From contig CM120648.1 of NCBI GenBank assembly GCA_051362555.1, positions 8,862,587 through 8,926,586 on the forward strand: 64,000 nt of DNA, in the 5' to 3' direction. The stretch's first letter is position 1; every line of letters starts with the position of its first letter. This DNA is from Lingula anatina (taxonomy: Eukaryota; Animalia; Brachiopoda). The notes below the pieces were generated by a model that was given only the letters and a program-made list of their open reading frames with translations, made no database searches and was not told the DNA's origin. This document shows positions 7,673-47,880 of the stretch, piece by piece. The position numbers were made by a program, and so were the translations under genes.

Positions 7673-7794
7673 CGGTTTATCGTCATCGGGACACGTCTTA
7701 CATGTGCAAACACCCCTGCCTTGTTGAACGGTGCATACGCCTCCGTGCTTGCATGTGACAGATTCACACGGGTTGGTCACCATGGGTCCAGTAC
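7673..7794 (-). CDS. AGRN: Agrin exon: N-terminal half of follistatin module 5
   Basis: GTTATAACAG acceptor, CCG|GTAGGT donor, 122 nt, phase 1 in and phase 0 out. Translates (G)TGPMVTNPCESVTCKHGGVCTVQQGRGVCTCKTCPDDDKP and joins the 1259 exon to rebuild KP|VCGSNG. Confidence 0.9.
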
Positions 7795-7864
7795 CTGTTA
7801 TAACAACACAAACAACTGTCACAAAGGCGAGAGCAGTGTAAAATGCAGTCCTCTCATCACACAT
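7795..7864 (-). CDS. AGRN: Putative alternative in-frame 5' extension of the FS5 exon encoding a signal peptide
   Basis: The first ATG after an in-frame TAG (7898-7900) reads MCDERTAFYTALAFVTVVCVVITG-TGPMVTNPC: charged n-region, ~17-residue hydrophobic h-region and a plausible I-T-G cleavage site. Confidence 0.62.
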
Positions 7865-10651
7865 CCCAGAATCCTCTCCTGCTGTCACTGTCGTCTGCTA
7901 ATTTCTACATTCAAGATGGAAAACTGTTGAATTTTTAAAAATTCACTGTCACAAAAACCAGCGCAGGACATTTTTCCCCATCATCAAACATCCCATAATG
8001 ATCAACTGCTGGGCCGTCTGCTACTTTTCTGTCATCTGTTAATGTCTTCTTCCAAAATGGAGGGAAAGTTGAAAAAAGAAATCAAATTATATGAGTGATA
8101 GGGGTTAACCATAGCAATCTTTTATGTCTAAATGAGCAAATAGTTTTTCCTCCCTGTAAGTCATTCACTGTGTCAGTTTCCAAGATGGAGAAACGGACTT
8201 CCAAAAAACAAGTCCTGATACAAGTTTGACGTTGTTATCAAGATTTTGTCAATGAGGCACTATCATGCAATAAATCCCTCTGCGATAAATCTTGTCTACG
8301 GCATCTTAGAAAACAGTCAACTGGATCAGTTATTGAATATGAAACCAACTCGATCCTCGACGGGGTCCCTAAGAAAAATGCATTTGCAATAAATATCCCA
8401 ATATCTGGAAAAAACGTTCCCACAAAACAACCAAATTAGTGGCTATCAACCTCCTTCGTCTGGCTTGTCCGATGGATTTGTGATCTGCCAATTTTACTTT
8501 CATCGGTGGCTTTCATTCCTCCTCCTTGCTTTTAATGAGTTTGCAAATACAATTATGACACTGGGCTTAGAAGGGAACTCAGAGCTATTGATCCTTCCAA
8601 ATGTTTTTTCGGAGAAGGCGGAGGCTTTCACTTAATTGGCTGCAAAATGTAGCAGCCAACTTCAACTGTCAAGAAAAAATGTTTTAACAAACTGTTGCCT
8701 TGTGGCCAATAATTTAAGGAATTGTATAATAAATTAGCTTTAGTCTGTCTTTATAAAACTGATATCCATAAATAAGATATTTCAATGAGCTAGCTAGGAC
8801 ACTTCAGTCAAGTGTTTAAATCGTCACAAATGAATCAAATGGACTCCCAGCTGAGTACCTTAAATAAAGTTTCCAGAGCTTACCATTAAAAAAAATGGTC
8901 ACTCATTCGTCTGACTCGTTTCAATCTCCACGAGTTTTTTTTTCATTCATGCAAATTCAGTATCAGCAAAAAATATACACATTGTCATTTTTCCATTAAT
9001 TGCTTTCCTCACGTCACATTCGTATTTTACCACCAACAAAAAAAGCTCTTCACTGATGAAATTAGGACATAGTGCAATCAAGTATCATTTTCTATCCTAA
9101 AATTCTGAAATGTTCCTAATCCATGCACTGATCTGTCTTCAATTAACTAATTAATGTCTTATAAAAAGTCTCAAAAGACTTTCTACAGTAACTGTAAGAG
9201 AATAAACCCAGACAGGATTTTTTTTAACCACGTTAAGTCTAAGAAGCTACTCTAAGATGCTCTTTGATGAACTTAGTTCCACAGTCAACAAACAATGTGA
9301 TCCTGGCATCTCAACCCAAGACTTCTGGTCTGTATTAAGTCAACCGATCTGGTTATATACCGGGTACATACACCAAGATGGACGCAGGGATCCCAAAGGG
9401 GATATTAAGGTCCCCTTGGCTTTCGCAGCCTAAATGGAGTTCATAGAATTTCTTTTCCATATTGAAATCTAATTGTGGCTGATTATGTTCAGTCATCTGT
9501 AAAAATGAAGAGTAATATTATCACAGATTATGATGTCTTAATCAAATAGGCTGTATAGTTTTCTCCCCCAAGACATACATACGAACATATACGTGTCGCT
9601 TGGTTAAAAGGTTTGATTCAAAATTTACTGCCTTCTTCATATTTTTGTCTAAATAAAATGAATTACAAATAGTTTGCTCAGTTATACAAATCCCTTGCTT
9701 GACAAATTTTAATCAAAATTGTCTCTGAAGTATATAACCCAGTAATCTCGATACTTTAATCAAAATGTCTTGCCAATTCTTATTCTAAGCCAGATAAAAC
9801 GTTTTTTGTCAGAACCACTCACTCTGCCCTCCCCTCTTGAGGATATTTCCTCTCCCTCTGAGCACTTAATATTCTTTCCTTCAAAACCCTCTATATTTTT
9901 CTGTCAGTAAAATTGAAAACCAAAGTAAGATGTTCTATAGAACTCCCAAGTAATTCCGTTACAGCTTCCTACAACTAAAAGAGCACTTATCATTTCTCCA
10001 GCACAACACTGTCATCTCGTCAAAGCCATTGAAAGCCAGAAATAAGCCTTTCTATAAAGAAGAAGACAGGGTTTTCTTCTCACGCAAGCCAATTGACTAC
10101 CAATCGATTTTACGCTATTTAATTTGGGTTAATTAATAAAATGTGAAGAGACCATTAAGCATCTCTCCTGACATCTTGATTGGCAGGTGGTATGGCTGGG
10201 CATCCCTGATGGATCTGATATGTCTGGGAGTGTACTCACAAGAGATTCTGAATAGCTTGTGAAAAGCAAATTCTTTCATTTTGTAAATATTTATTTATTA
10301 GTTTGTTTGTTTGTTTGTTTTTTAACATTATGTACCTGAAGGGAGATATTATTCTTGCTTCCAGGCAGCCAACTCTAGCATTTGATGCTGGAACTTTTGC
10401 CCACATCAAGATGTCAGATTTTGACATTTTCAAACATGCTGATGTATCTCGAGATAAAATCAATAAACTAAACTGGTCAGACAAATCAATAATTAAAAGC
10501 TCTGACAGTCTATGGCTATGGGCAAATTCACACAAGATTCAGCTAGATCTCTTATGACAAATATTAAAAACTCTTCTCTAAATCAGTGGCTAAGAGCTAG
10601 CTTTCAGTTGTAAATTGCAGGAATGCCACATATATTGTGCAACACTTTTTG

Positions 10652-10866
10652 GTGTGTGTGTGTGTGTGTGTGCGTGCGCGCGTACGTGTTTTTTTTCACA
10701 TGTACTTGGTGTGTATGCATGTGTGCGTGTATGTGCGTGTGTACATGTGCTTGGTGTGTATGTGTGTGCACAAGTGTGATATGGATGTGTGCATATGCAT
10801 CTGTGCACAGAGACATGCACATATCTATTTGCATGCATGCATGTACATGCATGCACATGTACATGA
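10652..10866. repeat. (TG)n / cryptic purine-pyrimidine repeat
   Basis: GT run followed by TGCA/TGTA variants. Similar tracts occur at 49-90, 3287-3356, 24005-24043, 26815-26975 and 51218-51340. Confidence 0.85.
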
Positions 10867-13164
10867 GCCTTCAAGTGGAAGGCATATATATCATAACATA
10901 ACCCAGAGCCTAAACCACACTAATCACATCAAATACTATCTCCTATACAGACAGCCAGCCAATTATCCCCAGTCAGGAATTATACCTTCATTCCACAATA
11001 ATGGAAGGGTGTTTATAGACATAAAAACACAATCAGCTGAGATCAAAGTATTTGCTAATGATGACTAGTGTATGACTAGGAATTCTAAGTTCATTATGAA
11101 TTGCTGTTCTTCTAATTTTTTTCTGCAATAAATTCTCCCATGTGTTTTAAAACATTGTGGAAAAATGAAATTGCCCAATGAGTATCACAATTTTATCAAT
11201 TACCTCTTTTTAATGGTGACATTTTATCCCACTGGTAGCTTAGACTTGAAATAAATCACCAACATTTTGTTTTCCTTTTGTTCTTTTTCTTCTACCTTCA
11301 AAAAATTTCAAATGGATGTTTAAAACATCTTCAGTCAAGCAAATTTGTTCTATTACTGATCTTAAGATTTAAATGTTCATATACAAGTAATTATTAACTC
11401 TCTAACTGATGACACATTCCATTTTTTTAATTAAAAAGTTGAGACCTAGCTTAGTGGCATATGCAAGAGACTTTTGCACATCACTTGAGATTTTCTAGGG
11501 AAATATCCCTTGAAGTTTTCTTGAAAAAAAAAAAAAAAAAAAAAACAGGCGAAATACTTGAAATCATGCACTGCTGCACTGCAAAAAAGAGCCACAACTC
11601 ATAATTTTATTTATGAAGCTCCCCTCATCTTGCAATCTAAAATACTGGGATGACTTGGGCCTGGGAGCAATTACAGAAACTATCTCGTCTACATTTTCTT
11701 TTTTGACAAAAAATATATACTCTCTCGAAGTTAAAAAACTACAAGGCAATTACAAGGAGCATCTAATCCCACTGCTGTGGTACCATTTTCTTGATAATCT
11801 AAAGAAATCAATGCTTCTGGGACGCCAGAGACTCAAACTAACACGGTGAGTTGATTGGTATATTTACAGTGGAGTCGGCTCGGGATTCTGACACCCAGTA
11901 ATCTTATTGATTTGAGAGCCAATCTCTTTTCTTTTTCTTTTTTTTTTTCTGTCTCTTACGATTTTCGGAGTCCTACTCGTATCAGCCCTCAGTCTTCCTA
12001 CTCTGGGATGAAACCAATCTCATGAACTTGTGCAACATAAAAAATACTGATTTTAATATGCCATTGAAAATCGAAGAAATAAGGTCAAGATATTTACTTT
12101 TGAATGGGCATGGTCTGTTTGTTTCATTGTGATCAGTGTTACGATGAATTGGTAAACACTGGTAGACAAAATATGTTGGAGCTTGCACTGCAGTTAAGGG
12201 ATTCATAGAAAAAAGCCTTAAGACTAAAAAAAGGATATTCAAATAATATTCAAATATTTGGAAAAATATTGAGTGTCCGATAGTTCAAATTTTTCTTAGT
12301 CCGAGGGTCTGCTTTTATGATAATGGTTATTGATGCGAAAGCTGCATGTGAAAGAAGAGCTTTTAACTATTACATGCCCTGACATTTTGTGTATGGATTT
12401 CATGCGTACTATTTTCTCTTACCTATTTTGAATATACACATATAAACATGAGTCCATGTACTATTATTATATTACTATTGTTTGCCTGTTATTTCGCAAC
12501 ATGTGCATTTGCATATCATGCATATAGAGTTAATTCTTCATAGCAGAATATACAGTGTCCATTTTATTCCTGACGCCATTTTTTGTCTGCACTCAAATAC
12601 TTTAGCCCATATACTCATATACATAAGGCCTCAGAACAGCATTCCCTAGATACACTGGTCCCTCGGTACAAAAGACCTTCAGCACAATGAACCCTTGAAA
12701 CAACGCACCCTAATTCTGAACTTAACATATTTGTTACGCACGTCCCTTTGGTGAATTACTTTATTAAATAAACATGGCTTTGCTCCTACTATCTACTCCA
12801 ATCAATATTTGTAATCTGATCACTGTAGGAAAACAATATCTCACTTACACATATTCTAAAAGGGGCCAAATTTTTAAAAGTGCGAACATGCCAACTGTTT
12901 CTTAATCTTGTCTCTCCATATGTAACAGGTATTCCCACTATTTTACTACTTAATCCTCCTTTGATCAGTTTCCATTATTATCATAAGTTGTAGTATTAGT
13001 GGTAGTAGTAGTAGTAGTAGTAGAAAAAGTAGTACTTGTATGATATTTTATTAGTTAATTCTACTTTGATCAGTTATCATTATTATCATTGTTCTGTCAT
13101 TCTGTTATTGCCATCTGTCATAAGTAGAACTGGTAGAAGTATGCCATGTAGTTACTGTAGTAGT

Positions 13165-13331
13165 CAGGGGCGGATTCAGAGATATTTTCTGACAGTCTTT
13201 CAAATTATCTTTGTTGATACATTCTTCTTTTTTGACCGTCTTCCAACAAAAAAATTAGATACCCGTCAATGTTAACATGAAAATCTGACCGTCTTCCGGA
13301 AGACCCAGAAGACGACCTAAATCCACCCCTA
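13165..13331. mobile_element. hAT-like MITE, family C
   Basis: TIR CAGGGGCGGATT...AATCCACCCCTA with an 8-bp flanking duplication GTAGTAGT (inside a TAG repeat, so weak evidence); internal TGACCGTCTTC repeats. Confidence 0.75.
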
Positions 13332-13834
13332 GTAGTAGTACATTTAGTAGTAGCAGAAGTAGTTCCTAGCAGTAGAATGTAGTAATACCAAGCATGAATG
13401 TACCAATTATAGATTAGCATAAAATTCCTCTTTATATATATATATATATATATCTACATAACATGAGGGAATTCTTTTCAAAAATTGCCCTTTTTGTTGG
13501 AAAAGGTCCTTGCGAACTCAAAATTTCAACTAGTTTCTTTGCCATTTCTCAAGCTGGGTAAATTTCAGTCAGTGGTAATTAAAAAAAACTGATGTTTTCA
13601 GAATAATCCTTTGAGGCTTTCAAATGTCTGACTGGAGGCCTGATTGTACAGTAAGCATCAACTGTCAATTCCAAGCTACTGTTTGTCAGGACCAATTAGT
13701 CAACCATCTGATAAAGAAATGTGCTGACTAGTTAATTAACACACACTATCAGATATCTCTGTATGGAGCTTTTCAAAGAGTTCAGTGATTAGCAGAGGAA
13801 GTGAACTGAGAAACTGCTGACACATTCACTACTC

Positions 13835-13865
<31 letters not shown>

Positions 13866-13891
13866 GGTACTTGTATATACATACTTGTAGC

Positions 13892-13937
13892 ACATAGTAG
13901 TTAGAAAGCCTTTAAATGTAAAAACATTTCTGTGCTC

Positions 13938-14005
<68 letters not shown>
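13892..14005 (+). repeat. Dispersed ~50-bp repeat with (AAT)n tail (probable retroposon 3' end)
   Basis: ACATAG.AGTTAGAAAGCCTTTAAATGTAAAAACATTTCTGTGCTCAATAA also occurs at 34259-34310. Confidence 0.75.
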
Positions 14006-15283
14006 TACAAGTAGCTCCTTGCAAAAAACTGGATAGGCATGAAGCAAGTGATGGCTACAATATAAATTTATGAAAACATCAGATTTGCTGAAATACTTAA
14101 AACATCTTTGGCTGGATTAGCTGTAACATGGTATTATCAAACCCCTTGACTTACAGTGAAAAACCAAAGAGCAGTTTTCTTTATAAGTAATGAGTTTGTA
14201 CAAACAATCTGCAAAAAAAAAAGTATTTTTAAAAACTGGTAGTATTTAGGTTCTTCATGCAACACAATGTGCAATGTTATATCTTGAATCTGATAAAAAA
14301 AAAAACAAGAACAAAAATCGATAAAAGAATCATAAAAACGACTCATTTCCAAACTGCTCTGAGTCCTCTTGCTGAAAGATAAGTGGATAAAGTGCGGAAA
14401 GAGCATCAAACCCTCACCAATATGTTTCATTTATTTATATCCCAAAAACATACACTTGATCTTCTGGGAGAACTATAATTGTCCATCGTTGGAATGGTGG
14501 ATGGTTCTTAATTCGGTTTCGGCACATTATGTGTTGACATTATCTAATTTGGATTGTTTTTGATAGTTTTCTTCCTCAGCTCACAGATACATTTGAAAAG
14601 AAAACCTCATCAAGTGTGCATGATGGTGGCTATAAAAGGAAAGCGTGGTCATTATCAAGCAAGTGCTTTTTGTGTTTTTGCTGTATACATGGACTTTTAA
14701 TTAGGGTGTACTGAAGTTTCATTTGGTGGTAAATTGAAATATCAGTCCATTTTGTCATTGAGCAGTACAGTTTTCTGTACTGTTTTAGTGTCAATTTCCA
14801 ATACTTATGAACTGAGAGTGTGCTCCTATAATGTTCAGTAAAAGCAGGATAGGTCAAACTGAGATTAAATATATTATGCCAGTTTTATCTAGTTCCTTGT
14901 GAGTCTGCATCAATTTATCATTTATCTTTCCAAACTCTTTTTTTATGGACAAGACTCTTATACAACTTTTTTAACTTTGAAATCTTGAATAAATTTATTG
15001 AGTATTGCAGTTTATAACAATTCATGAAGAAATTCAATCAAAACTTGATTAAAGGGTATGTACCAATATCACATTCAATTAGTTTATAATAATAAAACAA
15101 ATAAGAAAATTAATATAATAATTTACTGAGTTCAACATAAGGTTATAGTGAATAATGTTTATATTCAAATTATAAAAAGTGAAAGTAAAATCCTGCAAAG
15201 AATGTGTTACATCTGACAGAAATTAACAGGAAAGTGTGTTAGGTGTGACAGTGATGAAATATAGCAAAGAAAACTGAATGTGC

Positions 15284-15590
15284 TATATTCAACAATTTGT
15301 CAGAGAGAGAAAATAAAGAGTATAATAATAATATAAAAATAAAGAGAAGATCAAAAATGATACTGCACAGTTTATTAAATTGTTGGTAATACAAATTTAA
15401 CCAGGCCAACATTAAAACACTGAAAATCTATCCCTACATCCATTTTGTTGTTATATTCAACAATTTGTCAGAGAGAGAAAATAAAGAGTATTAGAGAAGA
15501 TCAAAAATGATACTGCACAGTTTATTAAATTGTTGGTAATACAAATTTAACCAGGCCAACATTAAAACACTGAAAATCTATCCCTACATC
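15284..15590. repeat. Tandem duplication of ~140-155 bp
   Basis: TATATTCAACAATTTGTCAGAGAGAG...AAAATCTATCCCTACATCC occurs twice, near identical. Confidence 0.9.
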
Positions 15591-15686
15591 CCCGATATTT
15601 TTTAACAGCTATGAAGAAAGCAACCAATAGTGAAAATTTATTTAATATGTTTCCATACGGTAAAAAACAGTAATTATACAACTTAC

Positions 15687-15908
15687 CACATGCCCTTTCA
15701 TGCTTCAAAGTCACACCTGAATTGGTTTCACAAGCAGTCCTATTAAGCTCACACCAATTCGAGTATGTCTTTCCATCCGTCCCGCACACAGGTGACCCTA
15801 CAGGTTCGCAGTGGCCACATGTGCATCTGGCAATCTGGAGGCGATCTATATAGCATACTTTCAGTGGTCCACAGTTTATATTTCGGCAGGGGTGAGGCTG
15901 TGGCGAAT
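15687..15908 (-). CDS. AGRN: Agrin exon: follistatin/Kazal module 4
   Basis: TCTTCTTCAG acceptor, G|GTAAGT donor, 222 nt, phase 1-1. Translates (D)SPQPHPCRNINCGPLKVCYIDRLQIARCTCGHCEPVGSPVCGTDGKTYSNWCELNRTACETNSGVTLKHERAC. Confidence 0.92.
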
Positions 15909-17517: not shown

Positions 17518-17572
<55 letters not shown>

Positions 17573-21733: not shown

Positions 21734-21946
21734 CATCACATTTTCCTTGGAAAAATACATGAATCTCCTTCTTCTGTTTGCATGCCTCGAGTTTCAGGAA
21801 ACACTCATTACTGTATGTCTTTCCATCCGTACCACACACGGGGGCGAAATCAGAAGAGCACAGTCCACCGCATTTACACACAGGTTTTCGGTTTGAGTCC
21901 AACTGACACATTTCTGTTGCATTACATTTGTGGTCTTTACAGGGAT
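21734..21946 (-). CDS. AGRN: Agrin exon: follistatin/Kazal module 3
   Basis: TTATTTAG acceptor, G|GTAAGA donor, 213 nt, phase 1-1. Translates (N)PCKDHKCNATEMCQLDSNRKPVCKCGGLCSSDFAPVCGTDGKTYSNECFLKLEACKQKKEIHVFFQGKCD. Confidence 0.92.
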
Positions 21947-22400: not shown

Positions 22401-22447
<47 letters not shown>

Positions 22448-28433: not shown

Positions 28434-28670
28434 TGCATTTTCCATAATATAGCACCCTGAGGTCACTCTGGTTCCTGCATGCCTTGGCGTTCATCTCACA
28501 TTCATTTTTATAGTCTCTCCCATCTGAGCCGCATACTTCACGATCCTGTAAGCTGTCGCCATAACTGTAGCACACGCTCGGACACTGACATTGGTATTCC
28601 ATTCCCCCTTCTGCAGGCACGCACACTCCCTTGAAGGGGCACGTCACATTTTTACACGGATCCTCGATAC
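28434..28670 (-). CDS. AGRN: Agrin exon: follistatin/Kazal module 2
   Basis: Acceptor CTTTACGAAG, donor A|GTAAGT, 237 nt, phase 1-1. Translates (G)IEDPCKNVTCPFKGVCVPAEGGMEYQCQCPSVCYSYGDSLQDREVCGSDGRDYKNECEMNAKACRNQSDLRVLYYGKC. DPC-NVTC-F and VCGSDG-DY match agrin FS2. Confidence 0.92.
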
Positions 28671-28797
28671 CTTCGTAAAGATAACAGCACTGTGAGACTG
28701 CAACTAATGACAGTAGGAGAGGTCCATATTTATGCAATATGTGTACGGACCAACACTGAATGACCAGATCAGAAAATGTGTCCGAATGAAACTTCAT
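28671..28797 (-). CDS. AGRN: Putative alternative in-frame 5' extension of the FS2 exon encoding a signal peptide
   Basis: ATG at 28797 is open through the acceptor: MKFHSDTFSDLVIQCWSVHILHKYGPLLLSLVAVSQC-CYLYEG-IEDPC, with hydrophobic core PLLLSLVAV and a small-residue cleavage region (SQC). Confidence 0.6.
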
Positions 28798-34150: not shown

Positions 34151-34326
<176 letters not shown>

Positions 34327-35318: not shown

Positions 35319-36893
35319 TTAGTCTCTGTACTTGAAAATCTGTATTTTTCCCTTGCACTCCGTCACAACCAGGTGGCCATCGCTATCAACTTCAATACCT
35401 CTAGGATACTGCAACCCGTCGTCCTTGGTAACCAGGTCACGTATAAACTTCCCATCAGGTGACACCAAGTGAACACGATGTGTCACCCAATCGGCAACCA
35501 TAATGTTCCCTAACTTATCAACACAGACGCCCCTTGGTTCGCTCATTTCTTCACCCTCACCAGACCCTTTGCGACCATATCGAAACACAACATCACCCTC
35601 TAGTGTTAAACCACACATGCAGTATTTTCCATTATCTGAAACTACAATCACATTCTTGCGAGTTTTGGTGAGAAACCATGGGTGGTCAAAAAGCTGATTT
35701 CCTTGACTGTCAATGGCGATGGTTTTTAGCTTGGCCCCATTTATGTTGACCAACGTGACTGCTTTGGTGGCATCCCCCACAAAGGCTAACTCATTCTGAC
35801 TGAGCCATACCACACCTCTGCACTTTGGTGCTACAAGGGCTTTTTTCACTCGGAATGTGGAATCTAATATAAAAAGGCTATCATTTCCAGTGCTGGCCAC
35901 AGCAATGTTGCCATCTTGACCACAGGAAATATCCCAGGGGTGGTCAAGATGGTGTCCACCATCCCCTGACCATTCATAAATAAGATTGCCACTCTTCTTG
36001 AAAACTTTGATTTTGTGGTTGTTGAAGTCCGTCACAAGCATGGTGGAGTCCTTGGCAATAGCTACACCTGCAATCCAAGGATCACTGGCATCTGACTTTG
36101 ACCGAGCATTAAATTCTTGGACTTTGGTGGCTTTAGGTCTGATAGCGTACGGTTCTTGTTTTCCTGGTTCCACATCTGGTTGTGATTTGTCACCCTGGCT
36201 AACTGTAGTGGCAGGCGGCTGATGGCAGGAATGTGTTGGATTACACGGTAATGTGTTAGGTGTGATTGTGCTAGGTGTGACACTGCAAGGAATGTCACTC
36301 TCAATAGATGGCATCACAGGCAGCTGGACGGTTGACTCAGGATTTTCTTTTCCTGTTAACCCTAATTCTAAAATTCCTAATGGAGATGTCATATCATCAG
36401 TGACTTCTTTAATGAATTTGTCATTTGGAATAAACTTTAAAGACCTTGGAGACACTGGGTGATGTTTCAATGCATCCTTTTCTTTCAAAAGTTTGGTCTG
36501 GTCATAGATTTGTTGGGCAACTCTTTTCACTTCAGCTTTTGATCTGGAATGTGACACGCTGCTGCCCAAAGCCAAGGAGCCCTCAATCTGATGCTGAAAC
36601 AACGACAATTCAGCCATCTTGGTTTTCACTTGACGCATATCTTCATCAGCTACTGTGTTAACTTTGCTGTGTAATTTTGCTTGGTGCTGTCTGATAATAT
36701 TTATAACCCTCTCACAATGAGCATCAATAGTATTTCTCATTTCATCCTGCTGTTGAGAAATTTTGACTTCATTGTCTTTCAGAACTTTGACATGCTCCGC
36801 ACATTGTCTCTCAATGAACAGAAGAGATAATCTATTTTTCTGAAGCTCATCTAATACATCCTTTGCATCTTCACAATCTGCTTGACAAGACAT
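35319..36893 (-). CDS. Intronless coiled-coil + NHL-repeat protein (TRIM2/3/71-like C-terminal part, no RING or B-box), nested in an agrin intron
   Basis: 524-aa ORF from ATG 36893. It has an N-terminal coiled coil resembling the TRIM BBC region, a Pro/Ser/Thr linker, and NHL blades (GVAIAKDSTMLVTDFNNHKIKVF; HPWDISCGQDGNIAVA; HPWFLTKTRKNVIVVSDNG; EPRGVCVDKLGNIMVADWVTHRVHLVSPDG; YPRGIEVDSDGHLVVTE). Confidence 0.9.
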   Translation of the reverse strand: MSCQADCEDAKDVLDELQKNRLSLLFIERQCAEHVKVLKDNEVKISQQQDEMRNTIDAHCERVINIIRQHQAKLHSKVNTVADEDMRQVKTKMAELSLFQHQIEGSLALGSSVSHSRSKAEVKRVAQQIYDQTKLLKEKDALKHHPVSPRSLKFIPNDKFIKEVTDDMTSPLGILELGLTGKENPESTVQLPVMPSIESDIPCSVTPSTITPNTLPCNPTHSCHQPPATTVSQGDKSQPDVEPGKQEPYAIRPKATKVQEFNARSKSDASDPWIAGVAIAKDSTMLVTDFNNHKIKVFKKSGNLIYEWSGDGGHHLDHPWDISCGQDGNIAVASTGNDSLFILDSTFRVKKALVAPKCRGVVWLSQNELAFVGDATKAVTLVNINGAKLKTIAIDSQGNQLFDHPWFLTKTRKNVIVVSDNGKYCMCGLTLEGDVVFRYGRKGSGEGEEMSEPRGVCVDKLGNIMVADWVTHRVHLVSPDGKFIRDLVTKDDGLQYPRGIEVDSDGHLVVTECKGKIQIFKYRD

Positions 36894-37913: not shown

Positions 37914-38610
37914 CAATACTCAACATTCACATAGTTTGTTTTGGTAGTTTCCTTCAGCTATCAAGAACTTTTTTAAACCAAAAAATGGGAAACTTTACAC
38001 ATGAAATTGTGCATAATTAGTAATCTCCTTCTAAAACAGGACCAAAAACAAGCATCAACCAAGCCCCCTCGATATGTAAGAAGTATAAAAGAGATCCATC
38101 TCTAATAGGGGACTTCAAAACAAACACAATTTACTGATGAAAAGTGCCAACAGTTTGGTAATTATAATAAATTGAGTGTAATTGGTATCTATAAGATCAA
38201 CTAATATAAAAAAGAAAAATATCCTTTTTTTTAATATTTTTATATTTTTTATCAGTTGATCTTATAGATTTATCTATCTACATTTGTCACATGGGTGAGA
38301 ATGTTTAAACATGTGCAATGAATGTGCTGTAGTCTGTAATAGACACTTACCAACTTCACTTTCTGCAATAATTACAAAAGCAAAATGCTTTAAATACATA
38401 TGGTGTTATTTAAAATATTGTAATTTCTAAAAAAAATATGCATAACAAACCCTTTTTTATCATGAGAACCACAGGTATACAGAATACAACAAACTTAAAC
38501 TGATATTTCATAATTATCCTGTCTTTATCAATTTAAATCTGAAAATTATTGATTAAATATAACGAAAACAAAATATATCTTAAATGTTAAAAATAAAATA
38601 AGAACCTTAC

Positions 38611-38829
38611 CATTAACACAAGCACCTCGTAGTTTCTGTACGATCCTCCTCTGCGTGACACAGCTCAGTCGGCGCATCTGACATTCACTCGAGTACGTGA
38701 CACCATCGCTGCCGCATACTGGCGCATGCACAGAGGAACAATGCTCGATGCATTTACAATATGGCTCGTTTGTTGTGGCATTGACTAAACACTGTGCTCC
38801 AAAAGCACAGTAGAGTTTCTCGCAGGGCT
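38611..38829 (-). CDS. AGRN: Agrin exon: follistatin-N + Kazal module 1
   Basis: TTGCAG acceptor, G|GTAAGG donor, 219 nt, phase 1-1. Translates (E)PCEKLYCAFGAQCLVNATTNEPYCKCIEHCSSVHAPVCGSDGVTYSSECQMRRLSCVTQRRIVQKLRGACVN, with 10 Cys and the PVCGSDG-TY Kazal motif. Confidence 0.92.
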
Positions 38830-38969: not shown

Positions 38970-39016
<47 letters not shown>

Positions 39017-39018
<2 letters not shown>

Positions 39019-39518
39019 GCCATTCATACTAGCAAGTTAACCCCGAAAGAATCGTGGTCAAACAAACCCACTTTCTTTGTGTTCACACTGATACTAGCAG
39101 TGATAGCCTTTCACCAATCATATTTCCTGCTTAGCATGTGTATTATTGTTCTCATTAAAAAGTAATAAGAAGAACATGGCTAGAGTTGGCAACAATGACT
39201 CTTATGCTGCACAAAATATTTATTTTACCAAGAAATACTTCCATGAGAAAAAATTACAATTTCTGCAAATATGCGTGGCAAGGAGAAGAAATATTATTGA
39301 ATATGATGTGCCATGTCTGATAAAATCAGTATCAGTATACTGTCAGAAGTTCCTGCGAAATCTGACTACTGCACACAAAGTTCACTTCGATAGAACTGTA
39401 GTTCCGATCTGGTTTATTTGGACAGCAGTCAGGGTACATAGTCCACTAGAAAAGTTTAGACCTGATAGGACAGCGATCAGGCCTTAACCACAGTCAAAAT
39501 TAGCAGTGTGAATGGACC
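39017..39518. mobile_element. Harbinger-like non-autonomous element inserted in a (CT)n microsatellite
   Basis: Ends GGGCCATTCATACTAGC...GCAGTGTGAATGGACC; TC repeats lie directly on both sides. Confidence 0.65.
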
Positions 39519-39782
39519 TTCTCTCTCTCTCTCTCTCTTTCGCCATAATGCCACTAATTTCACACAATGAGGTGAATTGGATCAGCACAGCATACATTCC
39601 ATACTTCTGTGGTTGCAATTACATCTCCATTAGCTTGATGCTTTGGATCAATTCCATCAGCAGGAGAGCCATTTTTTTCTTTCCTCTCTGTGTTCTATAT
39701 TCAGCACATCTAATGAGAAAGATTATTGTGTTGCATTCCTTTGGGAATAATAACAGGGGCACTTTGGCATGTTCTGGGGTAT

Positions 39783-40150
39783 AGTGCGGTCAGGGGTGTG
39801 ACACAGTCAAGGTCATGTAGTTGTCAGGGGTGTGACACAGTCACCAACGTGATACAGTCAGGGGTGTGACACAGTCAAGGTCGTGTAGTTGTCAGAGGTG
39901 TGACAAAGTCACCAACGTGACACAGTTAGGTGTGTGACACAGTCAGAGACATGAGTCAAGGGTATGACGTGGTGAGGGATATGACAGTCATGGACGTGAC
40001 AAAAGGGTGTAGTGTGGTCAGGGATATAGCACAGTCAAGGTATGACACAGGGGTGTGAACTGGTCAAGGGTATAGCACAGTCAGGGGTGTGAAGTGGTCA
40101 GGGGTATAGCACAGTCAGGTGTATGTGTGAGGTGGTCAAGGAAATGACAG
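39783..40150. repeat. Degenerate G-rich minisatellite (GTCAGGGGTGTGACACA-like units)
   Basis: Repeated CAGTCAGGGGTGTGACA/CAGTCAAGG variants. Confidence 0.85.
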
Positions 40151-42199
40151 GTGACAGTTTAGAAAGGTTGACACTACTAAAAACAAGGGTTAAGTTCAGT
40201 TTTCTTTTTCAGGGCATCTAAATTATTTTTGAAATATATCTTGTTGTTTTTGTTGTTGTTTTTCTTTTTTATTTTTATTACCTTTTCTTTTTAGTAAAAT
40301 TACCACAAAAGATTGAGAAAAATACCCCAACTACACCTGTAAACCCACATGACAATTTGCCTTTTTATAAGTCAATATTCACAAATTAAACTTGATAAGA
40401 TTTTCTTTTTTTGTTCAGTTCAAATGTGATATTTTCCCCCCAAATCTTAACACTGAAAAATCTTGACAAAATTGCTGAACTGAGAAGTACTTCTAAAAGC
40501 TATCCTCATCCACATTCTTTAATTCTATTAAAATATTAGTTCATTTCAGCAACCTTTATATAAAATGTGCAAAATATCTATATTTAGTAATTTAGCACCA
40601 GAACATGACAGATCGGCTGTTTCCATTTGTAAACCTTTTGCTAGTATCTCTAAGCTATTAGGCTGTTATGTCAGTTATCAGGCCAGACATGCTCTTTCAG
40701 TAATTTAAGATATTACTCTCAGTTGGAAATATGTATTACAGAAAGGCCAACATTTTCTGCGCGATTCTCACAAATGCTCTTTATGCGCACTTAGAGTGAC
40801 ATATTGCTTTTAAGCTGTTTCCCAAATGAAAAAATGTGGGGTAACTTTATAACTTATTCATCAAGATTCAGACTGTATACAAATGTTGGTTTTGCCTATG
40901 TTTTGTTTTTCTTCCTGATAATGATTGCTTCAGAAACTCATATCAACTGCACTTCAAATATATTTTGAAAAAGTTCTACAAACAACTAGCATCAACCTTA
41001 ATTTTTTAACATTCAATTAAAAATATTCTGCATTCTTTATCTTTCTACAGTCAAGTAACTTAGACCATTTTTGGACAGTTTTATAACATAATTATTACCA
41101 ATGGATAAGAGCGGCTGTGAAAAATGTGTTGCTTCACTACTTTAATCGAGAAATATTCATTCTACTCACTTCAAACTGTGCAATGAGAGGTTTCTAGGTT
41201 ATTTTGGAAAAAAAAACAATCATAATCTTTTTTTTTCCTTTTCAAATGGAAAACAGAAGCCATGCACGTAATCAGGCTTATTCTGTCTTAATGGAAGCCA
41301 TTTTGCCAACATCCCCTATGAAAACACAACACCTAATTCAGCTCAAATAATGTATATTGAATGGCACGCCTTTCCATCACAAAACAAGAAATTAATCAAG
41401 AAAAACAATTAAAGTAATGGAAAAATGGAGAGGTTTGGACATACACGAGATGGGTTAAATCAGCGGTGTGTGCATGCAGTACATCTCTTGATAAGCAGCA
41501 TCAACCATCTTCATCAGTTTTAATAAATAAAATGTTTTGTACTAATCAACCGCACCCTCCTTTTGTTTGAAAGTGCTTAAGGACTCATTCGACATAACAC
41601 AAAGAGCAGCACACTGATGAGAAATGACAAAATATAATGGCATATAGTGTCATTTCTTTGGTAACCATTTTAGATTTGATTAAGCTGAATCAATCACCTT
41701 GTGGCTTGCTCCCCCATGAATGCTTGGGTGGCAAATGAAAGCGAATTGTAAACTAATCATCCACAAAGGGACGTAATTTAGAGAAAAATTCCCGTTATCT
41801 ACACTCATTATCGTCAATCAGTGTAAATCACGGGAATGATTCATTTGTCAGCGCCAGGTTTTATCTCGAATGCTACTGGTACACAAAATACTGAGAAGAT
41901 CACACACAAAATGGCAGTCATCTATCTCATTTCACAGGTAGTTTTTTTTTCTACTTTTGGGAAACCACCACATGGAAAAAGGTGACACAAAAAAAAATAA
42001 GAACATGTTATATCTACGACTGGTTAAATAAAAACAGAAGAGATTTACCCTGATAAGATAAAAAACTAGTAAAAACAAAGACAAAAAAGATGCAGGCTTT
42101 AGATAAAAATGTACATATAACTACACAAATAAAACCATGTCACAAACTGCTGCTGCAAATTCCCACATGTTATAATGTGTCTCCCTCTCCACCCTCCCC

Positions 42200-42375
42200 C
42201 CTGTCATGCTCAAGAAACCCCCAACCCCATTATGCTCTAGACCCCCTCAGCCATGATCCAACACCCCCTCAGCCATGCTAACACCCCTCCTATCTCCACT
42301 CCAGCCATGCTCCAGACCCCTCCCCCCAAACCATGATCCACCCCCTCATGCTCCCCCCCCCCACCCCAGCCATGC
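42200..42375. repeat. Degenerate C-rich repeat (CCCC-AGCCATGCT)
   Basis: About 8 variants of CCCCCAGCCATGCTCCA adjoining the family C fragment. Confidence 0.7.
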
Positions 42376-42480
42376 TTGACAGGTATCTATTTTTTCTGTT
42401 GGAAAACGGTCAAAAATGTAGGATGGATCAACAAAGCTAATTTAGAAGACAGTCAGAAAATATCTCTGGATCCTCCCCTG
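42376..42480. mobile_element. Family C MITE, partial, inverted relative to 13165
   Basis: TTGACAGGTATCTATTTTTTCTGTTGGAAAACGGTCAAAAA...CAGAAAATATCTCTGGATCCTCCCCTG. Confidence 0.7.
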
Positions 42481-43411
42481 CCTTGCATATTCAATTTACT
42501 TAGCATGTGTTGGTGGTAGCCAAACTAATTATGGCAAATGAGCAGAGAGAATGTGTCAGATCACTAGGGATCTTGGAGAAGAAAAAAAAACTTGCTTTTA
42601 AGTTAATAAATGAACATCTCAACAGGTGGACAGACATGTGCTGAACACTTATTAAGGAGCACGTTAAAGTTACTGTTGTGACCTTTTGTCTTGCCCATTT
42701 GTTATCTAGGTGATCAATTCTAATAAGGAAAATAAAACCATCTTTCTCCCTGGCACTGTATACAGCATTTTATTTGACTCTATGACCTGAGATGGTCACT
42801 GTACTTCTAGTCAATACAAGCACATTTTATTTGTGCTAAGTGTTCAACATCTCCTCCCCCCCCCCCAAAAAAAAAAAAAAGGTTTTTAATAAATAAATTA
42901 GAAAGAAAGAAAAGAAAGGAAGAAAAATATGTTTTGGATTTGACAACACTATATTAGTATTGTCACGGCAGTTGTAAAGAATGCATATAATAGTGACTAG
43001 CAAAAAAAAAAAAATCACTTGATTATCTGATTATCAGAGAAATAAGGGGTGTACATAATCAAAAATTAAAAGAAAGAAAGAATTAAACGATGCTCAAGAT
43101 TTCTGGTATATTTTGTTGTAACTGTCTAATAAAGTGAAACAGATGCATTTTTGTGATCTCCAAGTCTAATTCGGCACTGTGTGTATGATTTTCACTGCAA
43201 TCAGTTGGTTTTGAATGGTCAGAGTTTTTAAAGTCTTGTATATGCTGCCTAGCTTGAACTTTTCAAATCAATTACATCTCAGTCACATTAAGGAACCTTG
43301 GACAAAGCGCGTCATTCAGCTGATTGTCATTTCATAGAAATCCAGGATATTATTCATTAGAAGGGGCCAGGGATCCGTGACAGGTTTCTGGAGAATTGAA
43401 TCAAACATGAC

Positions 43412-43760
43412 ATGTCTTTAGGTCTGTTCACACACTGGGCTAACTTACAAAAGATGTCTTTGGGTCTGTTCAAACACTGGACTAACTTACAGAAGATGTC
43501 TTTGGGTCTGTTCACACACTGGGCTAATTTACTTACAGGAGATGTCTTTGGGTTTGTTCACACACTGGACTAACTTACTTACAGAAGATGTCTTTGGGTC
43601 TGTTCACACACTGGACTAGCTTACTTACAGAAGATATCTTTGACTATGTTCACACACTGGACTAACTTACTTACAGAAGATGTCTTTGGGTCTGTTCACA
43701 CACTGGACTAACTTGAAGAAGATGTCTTAATATGAGTCTGTTCACACAATGGATTAATTT
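43412..43760. repeat. Minisatellite, ~8 units of 42-46 bp
   Basis: Unit GGGTCTGTTCACACACTGGACTAACTTAC(TTAC)AGAAGATGTCTTT. There are no unique spacers, so it is not a CRISPR. Confidence 0.9.
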
Positions 43761-43890
43761 AATCATGGATAAACTGACCGTATGGTAGTTCATTTTCAAA
43801 TATAAAAATACTGGGCCTGTTCACAAAAGTTAAAGTAAAAAAAAACAGAAATAATGCTTTGGACAATCTTTTTGATTACTACTTCTCTAT

Positions 43891-44116
43891 CACCCCATTT
43901 CCATAGATTTTTAGATCGATCTATCCCTGTGGGGAGTCTCACTAGATTACTGTCAGCTTGACTGGCTTAAGCGTCTATCCCGCCTACTAAAAGCTGTAAG
44001 GGGGTAATTAACTATGGTGCCCGCTCGGCTGACTGCAATTTAGCGTGAACCCCCAGGGAGTTAGGTCGATCTAAAACTTAATCTTTATATCGATCTAAAT
44101 CTCTGGGAAAGCACCC
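43891..44116. mobile_element. Family B MITE (partly deleted)
   Basis: TAGATCGATC, GGGGAGTCTCACTA, GGCTTAAG, GGGGTAATTA and GCAATTTAG motifs shared with the other B copies. Confidence 0.7.
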
Positions 44117-44761
44117 TATTCCTACCCAGGGTTCTGGTCAAAGCAGATCAAAAACTGAAGGTCTTCAATTTAAGACTAACTTTCAGCTCAAGTTCTCAAC
44201 CAAAAATGGTATTGGAAAAAAGGATTGCTGTGACAGTCCCAAGAGTTACGCAGCATTACTCTAATGCAAAAACATGCAACCATCTCATAAATGTTTACAG
44301 GATAAAACCAACTGAAAACCTTATCCACTGGCATTTCTAGAATGAAAACAACATCCAATAAAAAAATATCAAATTGTCATCATTCACCCAGAGCTCGTAA
44401 AAGTCCATAATATTTCTTTTATCATAACATTACAATCATTCCCTATCTGTGGCCCGGACACAAAAAAGTCCTGGAACTCACAGATCAATTACCTACAGCC
44501 ATTACTGTCTTGACGTCAATCAAAACGACATATTTTCTCATTTAGAATAATCTAAATCCACCACAATGAGAGGTCCCATGCAGATCAACACTTAAACTGT
44601 CATTACGGTTTCATCATGTCAATGCTATGGTTTTTTCCGTGCTTTTTGTAAGGAATGTGCGTATGAAGGTAGAAGCGAGATGAGGAGAGTGGTTTTACAT
44701 GATTTTTGTAAAGTATGTGCATGTGCACATTGTGGCGTGATAGGAAAATCAAAGAAAGGAC

Positions 44762-44764
<3 letters not shown>

Positions 44765-44826
<62 letters not shown>
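44765..44826. repeat. (CT)n microsatellite
   Basis: About 30 CT units; others at 38972-39016, 45111-45147 and 61300-61331. Confidence 0.95.
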
Positions 44827-44830
<4 letters not shown>

Positions 44831-44932
44831 GATTTTCTTTTAGCCAAATAGGATGATTTTAGCCATTTGACTAAAATTGTCATACAACAGTGAGCTAAGA
44901 ATGTTAAAATTAAATTAAAATAATAGCCTTAC

Positions 44933-44968
44933 CTTGTGGGGGTGGTGGCTTGGGAACAAATGGCATAT
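44933..44968 (-). CDS. AGRN: Agrin 36-nt linker microexon (D)MPFVPKPPPPQ preceding follistatin module 1
   Basis: Acceptor TTTTATTTCCAG, donor AAG|GTAAGG, phase 1-1. The Pro-rich peptide resembles the linker between NtA/TM and FS1 in vertebrate agrin (recalled as DKPGTHFTPVPPTPP). Confidence 0.75.
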
Positions 44969-45106
44969 CTGGAAATAAAAGAATGAACTGTAAATGGATT
45001 CATAAATCTTGATTATATTATCAAATTATTTTCGTTAAGTATTACATTTGGAGATTAAATTTATTGAGTAAACATCTCAAAACAAAGCAAATGTTTGCTT
45101 GATCAA

Positions 45107-45147
<41 letters not shown>

Positions 45148-45513
45148 GTTATTTACACCCAACAGTTGAGAATTAATTAAGTAGCATACCATTTTACATT
45201 TTGTAAAAAAAAAAAAGGTATTAAATCCTAAATAAAAAATTCATTTTAAATAAAAGAGAAAAACATCTGCACTTGAGAACCTTTGTCAAGAAAAAAGTTC
45301 AATGATGTACTTCTACAGGTAGGTCCTACATATCTCAATCATTTACAAAGACCCACTCAAAATCTTAAAACACTTTTAACTGGGCCATCTGACATTAATG
45401 TATATATCAAGAAGTGCTTATTCCATAGGAAGCACCAATTTGATGGTTTATAATGAAAATAAGAATCTCATAAACATGGCAACCCACTTGGGAAGTTGGC
45501 AATCATATATTAA

Positions 45514-46904
45514 AGGCCTACTGCGCTCTAGGAACACATAGCGTTCACTGCTTTTTTTACAGTATAAAAACTATAAATCCACGTCAAAAAATTGTTCTTT
45601 TTAAGTTTTAGAGAGAAAAGATGAGATTTAGATGAGAAAATTCTGATTGGTCAGTTTCTAGTGACGTAACCCGTGGAGTAGCTTCCCACAGCTGTACTAG
45701 TAATAGTATATACTATGCAGTAGGCGACTAAACATCCAGGTGTCAGAAAAACAAATGCCGCAAAGTTGTGTTGCTCCCGGGTGCCGTAATGTAGGTTACA
45801 ATAAGAAAGACATCTGCTATTATATCCTGCCTGCGGATGCCGCTAAACGTAAAATTTGGCTCAATTCTCTGAAGTTAAAAAATCCCAGCACAGTGTCAAA
45901 ACACGCGAGGATCTGTAGCGACCACTTCGAGCCGGAATGCTTCGTACGTGACCTGCGAGCTGAATTGTGCGGTGGAAAAGCAAGGAGAAAACTAAAAGAT
46001 GATGCTGTACCCAGTATATTCGATTTTTCGGAGTACCAAAATGCGACAGTAAATGCCAGAGCGCTGCCGACGAGAGTCTTACCTGTAGGATGTGTGCATG
46101 ATGCGGCCGTCGAAAGGAAGAAGAGAGCAGCTTCTAGAGCCCAAAAAATAGTTCGTAGCAGAATTACGTTGTCGAATTTTTTGGTTATGTTAGTGAAAAC
46201 GTTAATATTAACATGATAGTGGAATCAAATTTTTACTCGACATACTGCTGCACTGATCACGTGTAAGGCAGAAGTAGCGAGGTAAGTTGCAGAGGTGTGA
46301 AATGTAGTGTCCGATGCTATCAGTCCGATATCTTTGGCCTTTTGTCCACTGACCTGGCTCTCCCGGAATGACACTGGTAAACTGCACGGGTGTGAAAAAT
46401 AATGTTAGCTGTCACACCTGCATGTATTAGGTAACTTTCTCTTATCAGTCGGGATAAGAACGTTCAGCCGACGCGACAGATGGGCAATGTGTGAAAAACT
46501 GTGTTCGCTGCCCTGCTTCCAAACCTTTACTGTTAACATAGTTTTGGTGTATTTTGTTGGTTAATAAATGGTAACCACGTGGGGAATTCATCTTTTTTTG
46601 TGTATCTATCTTCAAAAGTTTGAATTTATAAATGATCATGTAGTGATCAATTGCGTGTATCGCTTTTAGTTTGCACTGCTAGCAAGCGGATAGCTGATTC
46701 GAATATGGCTTTCTGAGCCTTGACGCTAGTGACGTCACTCGCCTTAAAGCGCCACCACGCGGGAGTATCATAAACTACATTCACACCTGCATAAAATCGG
46801 CTTTAAAAACTAAATAAACGTAAGAACTTTTTTTTCATTACTCAAAAATGACTTTTGGGCACCTAACGGATAGTTTTAACCCGTTTTTTCATCACAGTAT
46901 ACCT
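45514..46904 (+). mobile_element. Kolobok-type DNA transposon, internally deleted/non-autonomous
   Basis: TTAA at 45510-45513 and 46905-46908. Ends AGGCCTACTG...CAGTATACCT form an imperfect TIR with AG...CT termini, unlike the piggyBac CC...GG. The body is CpG-rich relative to the flanks and carries a THAP ORF but no DDE domain. Confidence 0.8.
45755..46216 (+). CDS. THAP zinc-finger ORF (N-terminus of the element's transposase)
   Basis: MPQSCVAPGC...LP...RKIW...RICSDHFEPECF...LKDDAVPSIF contains the full C2CH THAP signature, conserved P/W/F residues and the AVPTIF-type box. 153 aa. Confidence 0.85.
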   Translation: MPQSCVAPGCRNVGYNKKDICYYILPADAAKRKIWLNSLKLKNPSTVSKHARICSDHFEPECFVRDLRAELCGGKARRKLKDDAVPSIFDFSEYQNATVNARALPTRVLPVGCVHDAAVERKKRAASRAQKIVRSRITLSNFLVMLVKTLILT

Positions 46905-47696
46905 TTAAGCCAACTGATGTAACATCTCCACAGGGAACAGGTAGTAATACCAGCTCTGCGACAGTGAAACTCTATAGGAGAACTAAACATATTCTTCTTG
47001 GTGCCTGTGGGGAATTGCTTCTGTATATCATGCATGAGAAAGTTGGACTGTTGTGCACTTTCTGATTCCAAATTAACGTCAAGATTTACAATAAGAACTA
47101 GTGAAAGGAAAACTCAACATGCAATGCAAGAAGTCCAATAATTTTTGTCAAATGGATTTTTTCTCTTTTTTATTGTTCATATAAATGCTATAGCATGGTA
47201 CAATACACATAAAATGCTGGAAAACTGTGCAGACCCATTTAGAGATTGAATTATCATGATAACCTAGTGTTCTCATTAATAACTCATTAATTTAGATGAC
47301 AGTATTGCCTGATAATACATCATTGTGTTACGAGCTATCGTAATTTCTATCAGGTAATAATCACTGTAATTGTGGAATTATCTGTATACTATTATTATTA
47401 TTGTTATCATCATTATTTTACCTTCATACATAAGCATAAAAATTCTGAAATAATCTAAGAATAGTTTATAACAAGTTTACAGGAGGTTCAAAAGTGGAAA
47501 TTTAAAGTAAAGAGTATCCAAAAAACCCATCCCCTCTCTCCATCCCGGGACACACACCCATAAAAAGCAATATGTGTTCTTCAAACACAGAATCAAATAT
47601 TTCCCACATATACTGTGCACATTTCTGGTTGTTTTTTTTTTTTTGTTTTGTTTTTTTTTTACCACAAAAATTATATTCCACATGAAAATTAGTTAC

Positions 47697-47880
47697 CTGT
47701 AGGATTCTGGCCGGCCTCAAACATGTGATCCAGGTAGCCCCCATATAGTAAGATCATGGAGCATGCTAGCCCACACCAAAACAGACCAAACAGAAAGCAG
47801 ACAGCAGTCAGTACTCTACGTCTGCTGCAACTGTCCTTCAGTTTTATGTGTCGTCTTCCACTGACAATTATTTTTGCCAT
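47697..47880 (-). CDS. AGRN: Putative alternative first coding exon of agrin encoding a type II transmembrane/signal-anchor N-terminus
   Basis: ATG in strong context (AAAAAC-ATG-G) reads MAKIIVSGRRHIKLKDSCSRRR-VLTAVCFLFGLFWCGLACSMILLY-GGYLDHMFEAGQNPT, a basic segment followed by ~24 hydrophobic residues. It ends at donor CAG|GTAACT in phase 1 (184 nt), which joins the 44968 microexon in frame (T-D-M-P-F). Confidence 0.7.

Follow-up and report, generated by a model that had tools for sequence, protein, structure and literature searches.

Organization of the agrin locus

The window analysed here (64,000 nucleotides of contig CM120648.1 of Lingula anatina, assembly GCA_051362555.1) contains, on its minus strand, an agrin gene with 99% identity to the L. 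anatina RefSeq agrin; this match, together with the Pfam domains, bears out the identification made in an earlier note on the same DNA. An NtA domain (PF03146, E 6.9e-26) is present in record P0001, whose following exons are those of the window (97-100% identity for the exon parts FS1-FS5). The Pfam stretches of P0001 (9 Kazal_2, 2 EGF_laminin and 3 Laminin_G) correspond to the tandem-follistatin layout of agrin. Since no NtA match above 70% identity occurs within the window, the NtA exons are most probably located upstream, outside it. Pfam detected no SEA domain, a trait of vertebrate and Ciona agrin, in P0001; as the agrins of bee, beetle, nematode and sea urchin are also reported to lack it (PMC2874008 for part of these), SEA does not define the family outside chordates. 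Searches of the ESM Atlas returned generic Kazal clusters alone, all under 0.9.

All features described below lie on the minus strand. The TM first coding exon (47697..47880) is followed by a common linker exon of 36 nt (44933..44968, AG/GT ends), which is the meeting point of the NtA and TM starts and comes after NtA in 7/7 RefSeq isoforms. The follistatin chain then runs through FS1 (38611..38829; 10 Cys, Kazal_2 E 1.8e-12, 100% to RefSeq), FS2 (28434..28670), FS3 (21734..21946), FS4 (15687..15908) and FS5, the last being split into a first-half exon (7673..7794) and a second-half exon (1151..1259; Kazal_2 E 2.7e-13). A 12-nt alternative microexon with AG/GT ends (38351..38362) is placed between FS1 and FS2 in 5/7 RefSeq isoforms, and the FS2 exon, which has a weak AAG acceptor, is skipped in isoforms Lingula X7, Argopecten X1, Gigantopelta X2 and Haliotis X6; the earlier note had mentioned neither the microexon nor the skippable cassette.

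Hydrophobic leaders in frame with the exon chain

Three ATG-led hydrophobic leaders, at the TM exon, FS2 and FS5, are present and in frame as the earlier note had described. An exon of 61 codons begins with the ATG at 47880 and encodes a basic N-terminal tail of 22 residues and a hydrophobic helix at approximately residues 23-46; it ends at a phase-1 GT donor after 47697 and is in frame with the linker exon at 44968. The frame from the ATG at 28797 reaches the FS2 acceptor at 28670 after 42 codons (leader 28671..28797), and that from the ATG at 7864 reaches the FS5 acceptor at 7794 after 23 codons (leader 7795..7864). The closed introns cited as an internal control are indeed closed: upstream of the linker, FS1, FS3 and FS4 acceptors an in-frame stop is reached after 10, 9, 4 and 9 codons, respectively, without any ATG.

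The leaders exceed what chance would give: an ATG leader of 20 or more codons with an 8-residue hydropathy of at least 2.9 occurs at 20/2913 intronic AG sites, and a leader of the FS5 grade (11-residue hydropathy 3.25) in 3/4158 control tests (site-by-phase). The GC content of the 105 nt preceding the acceptor is 0.41 at FS2 and 0.47 at FS5, against 0.22-0.26 at the other 6/8 acceptors, and such values are less rare in the full set of 1650 intronic YAG sites, which average 0.35 and where at least 0.42 is reached in 16% and at least 0.45 in 8%. A further ATG, out of frame, is found 7 nt upstream of the FS2 leader. A sigma-70 promoter scan, which uses a bacterial-type model inapplicable to an animal, gave nothing above shuffles.

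The predicted membrane-anchored start

An HMM built from the TM starts of four molluscs and annelids (Liolophura, Argopecten, Lamellibrachia and Haliotis) recognized the TM exon among 2032 ORFs with 49.9 bits (E 2.3e-14), the next best score being 9.7 bits. This cross-phylum conservation argues for the membrane-anchored start proposed in the earlier note. A type II topology is predicted from the basic tail and from the hydropathy, which averages 2.36 over a window of 19 residues. The single TM exon sits in frame between the NtA exons, in their presumed upstream position, and the first common exon. The TM helices of lophotrochozoans, insects and vertebrates could not be aligned as homologues (hhalign probability <1%); for the comparison with the vertebrate SN exon the probability was 0.22%, and the aligned segments were short and of low complexity.

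A cysteine-tipped leader at FS2

The FS2 leader is a predicted signal peptide which ends in C-Y-L-Y-E and is contiguous with the FS2 exon. A leader-only HMM derived from other species ranked it first among the 2032 ORFs with 12.4 bits (E 0.018), the next score being 7.6. The Lingula leader is atypical in its 26-residue n-region and short h-region, and it is one residue shorter and lacks Pro. A database search with it returned solely the NtA form.

Among database agrins, 34/35 short hydrophobic starts on FS2 carry C-Y/F just before the module. This is the unselected count; C38 and Y39 are also invariant in a 28-row alignment, the rows of which were chosen for that motif. Short hydrophobic starts were found on FS4 in 0/11 cases and on FS5 in 0/10. 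Such leaders are spread over molluscs, chelicerates and insects, and were found in 0/74 deuterostome records. The 37 CY records, mostly automatic gene models, comprise 20 from Lepidoptera, 6 from other hexapods, 7 from chelicerates and 4 from molluscs. In T. madens, Folsomia, Xylocopa, a cephalopod, Nucella and Centruroides, comparison with NtA or TM isoforms places the junction of the leader at the FS1|FS2 boundary, and Folsomia has records for all three starts. The CY-start ORF P0156 (1599 aa) is located on a Logan contig of 6568 bases and therefore derives from spliced sequence. In Lepidoptera the leader belongs to a short paralogue that shares 47% identity with the long agrin. A metagenome scan yielded 41 loci, none of which included the FS2 exon.

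A secreted start at FS2 devoid of NtA, as put forward in the earlier note, thus gains support from conservation across phyla. The antiquity of this feature in protostomes and its invariant cysteine had escaped that note.

The -1/-3 pattern predicts cleavage of the leader such that Cys38 (28686-28684) becomes residue +1; the preceding residue is A, G, C, S or T in 37/38 pattern matches. In the aligned set each FS module has 10 Cys, barring a few missing or partial modules, and leader plus FS2 have 11 in 11/12 records tried (one was unparsed). Because the cysteine count of every downstream module is even, Cys+1 is predicted to be free in the chain. The odd Cys of Lingula LG2 was considered as an intramolecular partner and ruled out, as it is not conserved. 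Among the possible fates of Cys+1 an intermolecular disulfide appears the most likely, and we favour it with some reserve.

Proposed nested first exons of one agrin gene

Agrin is usually described with two N-termini. With considerable confidence, we propose that the conserved TM exon and the conserved cysteine-tipped FS2 leader are likely nested first exons of a single agrin body. By analogy with mouse LN/SN agrin, each start would have its own promoter, and the products would be directed to three predicted destinations, i.e. the basal lamina, the cell surface and a secreted pool devoid of NtA and FS1. The TM helix would act as an uncleaved type II anchor with the basic tail inside. The FS2 leader would be cleaved just before C-Y, and a disulfide formed by the resulting Cys+1 could dimerize agrin or cross-link it to a different matrix protein, an anchor that would take the place of laminin binding. 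Transcripts from the upstream promoters would have the FS2 exon as a cassette, and those from the internal promoter would likely begin with it; the leader doubling as a 3' splice site would explain why the acceptor is weak and the exon is skipped.

The FS5 leader, which would add to this proposal rather than replace it, has to be weighed separately. The full ladder of the earlier note may be real, with FS5 as a fourth start, confined to Lingula and used in unsampled tissues or stages, whose product would be a secreted agrin lacking FS1-4, a possibility that we take seriously but rate as slightly the less probable outcome. The claim drew its support from composition: the leader has a textbook signal-peptide shape that few control tests match, and an exon-like GC content, in contrast to the six ordinary acceptors. 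However, its h-region overlaps the pyrimidine tract, and a counterpart was found in 0/339 homologue records and at 0/2 genomic FS5 acceptors of other animals (2 of the 41 metagenome-scan loci).

Four of nine RNA runs of the same species (X1, X4, X7 and X9) were compared with positions 7645-9144, and X4 had no reads of the gene. All 19/19 informative reads at the FS5 acceptor (10 in X7 and 9 in X9) had been spliced from FS4, their loose ends matching the 3' end of the FS4 exon (agreement 0.99-1.0 at 7795). At its other end the FS5 first-half exon was joined to the second half by 7 + 11 reads, the loose-end consensus of which matches the start of the latter. No read fell on the leader, the depth at 7845-7894 being 0 in 3/3 runs holding the gene (X1, X7 and X9). 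In favour of an FS5 start, 6/8 reads of run X1 lie upstream, at approximately 8010-8925, and all of these have their mates oriented as in the exonic reads.

The leader is also unchanged in a second haplotype, P0388, but flanking pseudo-exons of P0388 are kept about as well. This record was rejected as an FS5-start transcript: its first base coincides with an AG acceptor, its frame remains open over 81 codons (1.6% by chance) and passes through a codon which in the window reads as a stop, and the record is therefore probably a partial gene prediction. The FS5 leader is thus unusual in composition and unproven as a start.

With regard to FS2, the leader might lack a promoter of its own and be reached from upstream via a non-coding exon, through use of an alternative 3' splice site or by retention of the intron, and further phase-compatible AG sites do occur within it. 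We consider this unlikely, as transcripts initiated upstream would already translate the NtA or TM frames, and all 20 lepidopteran short-paralogue records start at the CY leader and lack FS1; moreover, separate promoters are argued for mouse LN/SN agrin (PMC2189804). As another alternative, Hhat/Rasp might attach palmitate to the N-terminal Cys+1, as it does in Hedgehog and Spitz, which would yield a lipid-tethered FS2 agrin. The cysteine lies right behind the predicted signal peptide and is kept across protostomes, and Rasp acylates Spitz on such a residue; however, according to PMC8061759, an N-terminal Cys is insufficient and a basic residue is required within the first seven. Such a residue is found in 11/37 CY records and not in Lingula, and position 2 is Tyr, outside the residues listed there as tolerated, which makes this modification rather improbable. 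Finally, the leader is very improbably an artefact of predictors extending to an ATG through pyrimidine tracts (which translate as hydrophobic runs of F/L/S/P/Y/C), despite its position in the 3' splice-site region, the predominance of automatic models and the modest Lingula HMM score, since such an artefact would strike every module, whereas short hydrophobic starts concentrate on FS2 (35/58, against 1/49 on FS3-FS8, that one a CY record), C and Y are position-fixed across phyla, and the leader is present on the spliced Logan contig.

Implications

The FS2 leader likely gives rise to a shorter secreted agrin tipped with a predicted free Cys. Neither this start nor the TM start is contained in any of the seven RefSeq Lingula isoforms examined (0/7), which therefore miss both. 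That brachiopods, molluscs, chelicerates and insects have all kept a likely third start speaks for a conserved role independent of laminin binding, and the two-promoter layout of NtA and TM (promoters being presumed) can be extended to lophotrochozoans. Agrin function in invertebrates is practically unknown (PMC2874008). As in rat agrin the follistatin region binds to BMP2, BMP4 and TGF-beta1 (PMC2874008), the loss of FS1, or of FS1-4, could alter growth-factor storage. Cys+1 offers a one-residue handle, and isoform-specific knockouts become possible in Tribolium, bees and moths. A bolder and frankly tentative view is that protostomes possess an ancient third N-terminus, the free first Cys of which covalently links agrin molecules with one another or with a matrix partner as a third anchoring mode beside laminin binding and the membrane helix, and that such starts continue to be invented anew, Lingula adding a fourth one at FS5, so that the choice of promoter in one gene tunes both the location of agrin and its number of growth-factor-binding follistatin modules.

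Comparison with known systems

The earlier note had known of no description of such a multi-step system. Our literature search found no paper on a cysteine-tipped FS2 leader. TM agrin in invertebrates is not new: a type II TM form was predicted for Apis and Tribolium by Banyai et al. 2010 (PMC2874008, Table S1). Unlike the set described here, those predictions give one form per species, with no FS2 start and no cysteine motif. For sea urchin, the same table lists a model that lacks NtA and has its signal peptide joined directly to FS1; this model was considered erroneous. C. elegans AGR-1, which has a signal peptide followed by seven FS (PMC1939731), was rejected as an FS2 form, since Table S1 of PMC2874008 assigns it a divergent NtA.

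With Hedgehog and Spitz, acylated by Hhat/Rasp, the FS2 form shares the conserved Cys predicted at +1; it differs in that the basic-residue rule (PMC8061759) fails in 26/37 records and in Lingula, and in its Tyr at position 2.

A close parallel is the LN/NtA and SN/TM agrin of vertebrates. In the mouse gene (PMC2189804) the exon order is NtA, TM, short common exon and FS1; in Lingula, too, the TM exon lies just upstream of the short common exon, and alternative first exons would choose between basal-lamina and cell-surface agrin. In contrast to vertebrate agrin, the Lingula gene has a likely third start within the follistatin chain, which would drop FS1 and add a predicted free Cys (a start found in none of the deuterostome records), its TM helix lacks detectable sequence homology, and it has no SEA domain.

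A hybrid first/internal exon can act as a cassette inside a transcript or, when extended at its 5' side, open one. The FS2 exon of agrin would differ from these in that its 5' extension encodes a predicted targeting signal kept across protostome phyla.

Gene identity and exon organisation

We showed that the Kazal/follistatin exons occupy the minus strand of the window and that the gene is agrin, as the earlier note had proposed. Among 74 candidates, the frame of the second follistatin module (FS2) matched one protein, Lingula anatina agrin-like X3 (99%), whose cluster comprises seven RefSeq isoforms (P0001-P0007), all beginning with a signal peptide and the laminin-binding N-terminal domain (NtA). 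FS1-FS5 of this protein were placed in the window, and no NtA exon mapped there. The full-length protein contains NtA, nine Kazal, two laminin-EGF and three laminin-G stretches and lacks a SEA domain. A 12-nt microexon (38362-38351, minus strand) between FS1 and FS2 is present in five of the seven isoforms and missing from isoforms X3 and X7, the latter omitting FS2 as well. The last laminin-G (LG3), located outside the window, carries a 12-residue cassette in 5/7 isoforms of P0001-P0007.

The introns contain further features. An intronless 524-aa ORF (35322-36893) is nested in the FS1-FS2 intron on the same strand as agrin. Its N-terminal part looks helical and is followed by NHL repeats (Pfam E 8.5e-19), an arrangement that we take to resemble TRIM-NHL proteins lacking RING and B-box. 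Transcription of this ORF could affect a putative promoter of the FS2 start, located 6.5 kb downstream. A THAP-domain ORF (45752-46213; Pfam E 9.5e-17), possibly a transposon-derived gene or remnant, occupies the opposite (plus) strand of the intron that separates the TM exon from the linker. Minisatellites with 46-nt and 17/34-nt units (43412-43761 and 39789-40124) lie in the linker-FS1 intron.

Candidate N-terminal leaders

The three ATG-initiated leaders described earlier, namely the TM exon (47880-47697), the FS2 leader (28797-28671) and the FS5 leader (7864-7795), were all confirmed on the minus strand, in frame and in phase 1. The introns proposed as closed controls indeed reach in-frame stops 9, 4 and 9 codons upstream of the FS1, FS3 and FS4 acceptors, and the acceptor of the common 36-nt linker exon (44968-44933, minus strand) is closed after 10 codons. 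By chance, a loosely defined ATG leader occurs at 20/2913 sites and one of FS5 grade at 3/4158. The 105 nt before the acceptor have a GC content of 41% (FS2) and 47% (FS5), against 22-26% for the other six acceptors; the mean over arbitrary intronic YAG sites is 35%, and 8% of them reach 45% or more.

A probable transmembrane start

A helix closely resembling the Lingula TM exon opens records of Liolophura, Argopecten, Lamellibrachia and Haliotis. An HMM built on these four starts matched the Lingula exon with an E-value of 2.3e-14, the next of 2032 window ORFs scoring 9.7 bits. In Liolophura the linker is the point at which the TM and NtA isoforms meet, and TM starts occupy the same place in insects, chelicerates, a crinoid and vertebrates; profile comparison detected no homology among the lophotrochozoan, insect and vertebrate helices.

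A probable cysteine-tipped start at FS2

First modules were classified in 339 agrin-like records of at least 700 aa, 12 records without a laminin-EGF alignment (two of them with a hydrophobic leader ending in C-Y/F directly before the module, hereafter CY) having been removed beforehand. FS2 came first in 58 records, 35 of which open with Met and a hydrophobic leader of 15-62 residues, and in 34 of these 35 C-Y/F stands just before the module. Hydrophobic starts on other modules amounted to 1/12 for FS3 (itself a CY record), 0/11 for FS4, 0/10 for FS5 and 0/16 for FS6-FS8. A pattern search returned 38 of 358 records, one being a non-hydrophobic false match; the 37 true CY records, which are not independent and are mostly automatic models, comprise 20 Lepidoptera, 6 other hexapods, 7 chelicerates and 4 molluscs. 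None was found among 74 deuterostome records, mostly vertebrates, from a thinly sampled group.

Against an HMM built on leaders alone, the FS2 frame of Lingula scored best of the 2032 window ORFs (E 0.018). Its sequence S-Q-C-C-Y-L-Y corresponds to S-Q-C-C-Y-V-F in two bees. The boundary at which the leader takes the place of FS1 is identical in six lineages, and in Folsomia all three starts (NtA, TM and FS2) are represented by records. In a cephalopod, the CY form was recovered as an ORF of 1599 aa on a Logan contig of 6568 bases, and thus derives from spliced sequence. Isoforms omitting FS2 occur in Lingula, Argopecten, Gigantopelta and Haliotis, which fits the weak AAG acceptor of Lingula FS2.

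Signal peptidase cleaves after a small residue. In 37 of the 38 pattern matches such a residue (A, G, C, S or T) precedes the Cys, which fits cleavage there and would leave the Cys as first residue. An alignment of 23 agrins showed, with few exceptions, ten cysteines in each FS module and even numbers in the other modules, and the odd Cys of Lingula LG2 is not conserved; the terminal Cys is therefore predicted to lack a conserved partner within the chain. Acylation of this residue by an Hhat-type enzyme would require a basic residue within the first seven (PMC8061759); 11 of the 37 CY records have one and Lingula has none. Our preferred reading is that the predicted terminal Cys would form an intermolecular disulfide.

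In Lepidoptera, a short agrin paralogue (protein records P0115 and P0235-P0267; ~1090 aa, one laminin-G) opens with a CY leader and, across its first 500 residues, shows 47% identity to the long agrin of Spodoptera. Three Spodoptera records (P0068, P0381 and P0383) join different signal-peptide and NtA-like N-termini to the same linker, and a TM start also exists; this suggests that moths have duplicated alternative NtA exon sets.

The FS5 leader

The signal-peptide-like shape, rarity and high GC of the FS5 leader speak for it. RNA coverage of the leader, upstream of the FS5 acceptor (7794), failed to appear when four same-species RNA runs (X1, X4, X7 and X9) were aligned to 7645-9144. X4 gave no reads on this stretch, and X1 gave eight (two exonic, six upstream intronic), none on the leader. 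X7 and X9 gave 17 and 19 reads from a diverged haplotype, with zero depth on the leader; all their loose ends at 7795 (10 and 9, respectively) were FS4 sequence. This 0/19 is compatible with leader use of up to ~15% in the samples read, whose tissues are unstated. The leader was absent from all 339 homologue records and from the genomic FS5 acceptors of two other animals.

The sole record containing the leader (P0388, from a search with 18 hits) was rejected as an FS5-start transcript: it begins exactly after an AG, and its frame continues across a position where the window has a stop codon, which points to a gene prediction on another haplotype. Its upstream pieces (9900-9823, 9496-9372 and 7904-7795, minus strand) have good GT-AG sites and are probably predictor-made. 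Alternatively, they could represent untranslated 5' exons of a transcript that starts at FS5; of the three, 9900-9823 and 9496-9372 fall outside the stretch searched for RNA reads.

The proposal of several internal starts is supported for the TM and FS2 starts of agrin, with homologues across phyla, and is weaker at FS5, where neither a homologue nor an RNA read turned up. We consider the NtA, TM and Cys-tipped FS2 starts likely to be real, and put a fourth start at FS5 at slightly under an even chance.

Comparison with known agrins

A literature search, mostly at title level and with few subscription papers, found no description of an agrin start at FS2 or FS5, nor is one mentioned in the available portions of PMC1939731, PMC4967905, PMC3927609 and PMC12445529. 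The CY proteins are already in databases, unremarked. 5' RACE of C. elegans agrin gave one isoform (PMC1939731), whose N-terminus was later assigned as a divergent NtA (PMC2874008). Table S1 of the latter paper dismisses as an error the sea urchin model XP_791472.2, which lacks NtA and has FS1 immediately after its signal peptide; this model may represent another internal start. The table also contains a Ciona NtA form with C-Y immediately after the signal peptide. TM agrin was already predicted for Apis and Tribolium in PMC2874008.

The use of alternative first exons is itself well established. In PMC2189804, the mouse agrin exons are ordered LN, SN, common, and separate promoters are argued from a gene trap; the order is the same as that proposed here, with LN/NtA exons followed by the SN/TM exon and then the common exons.
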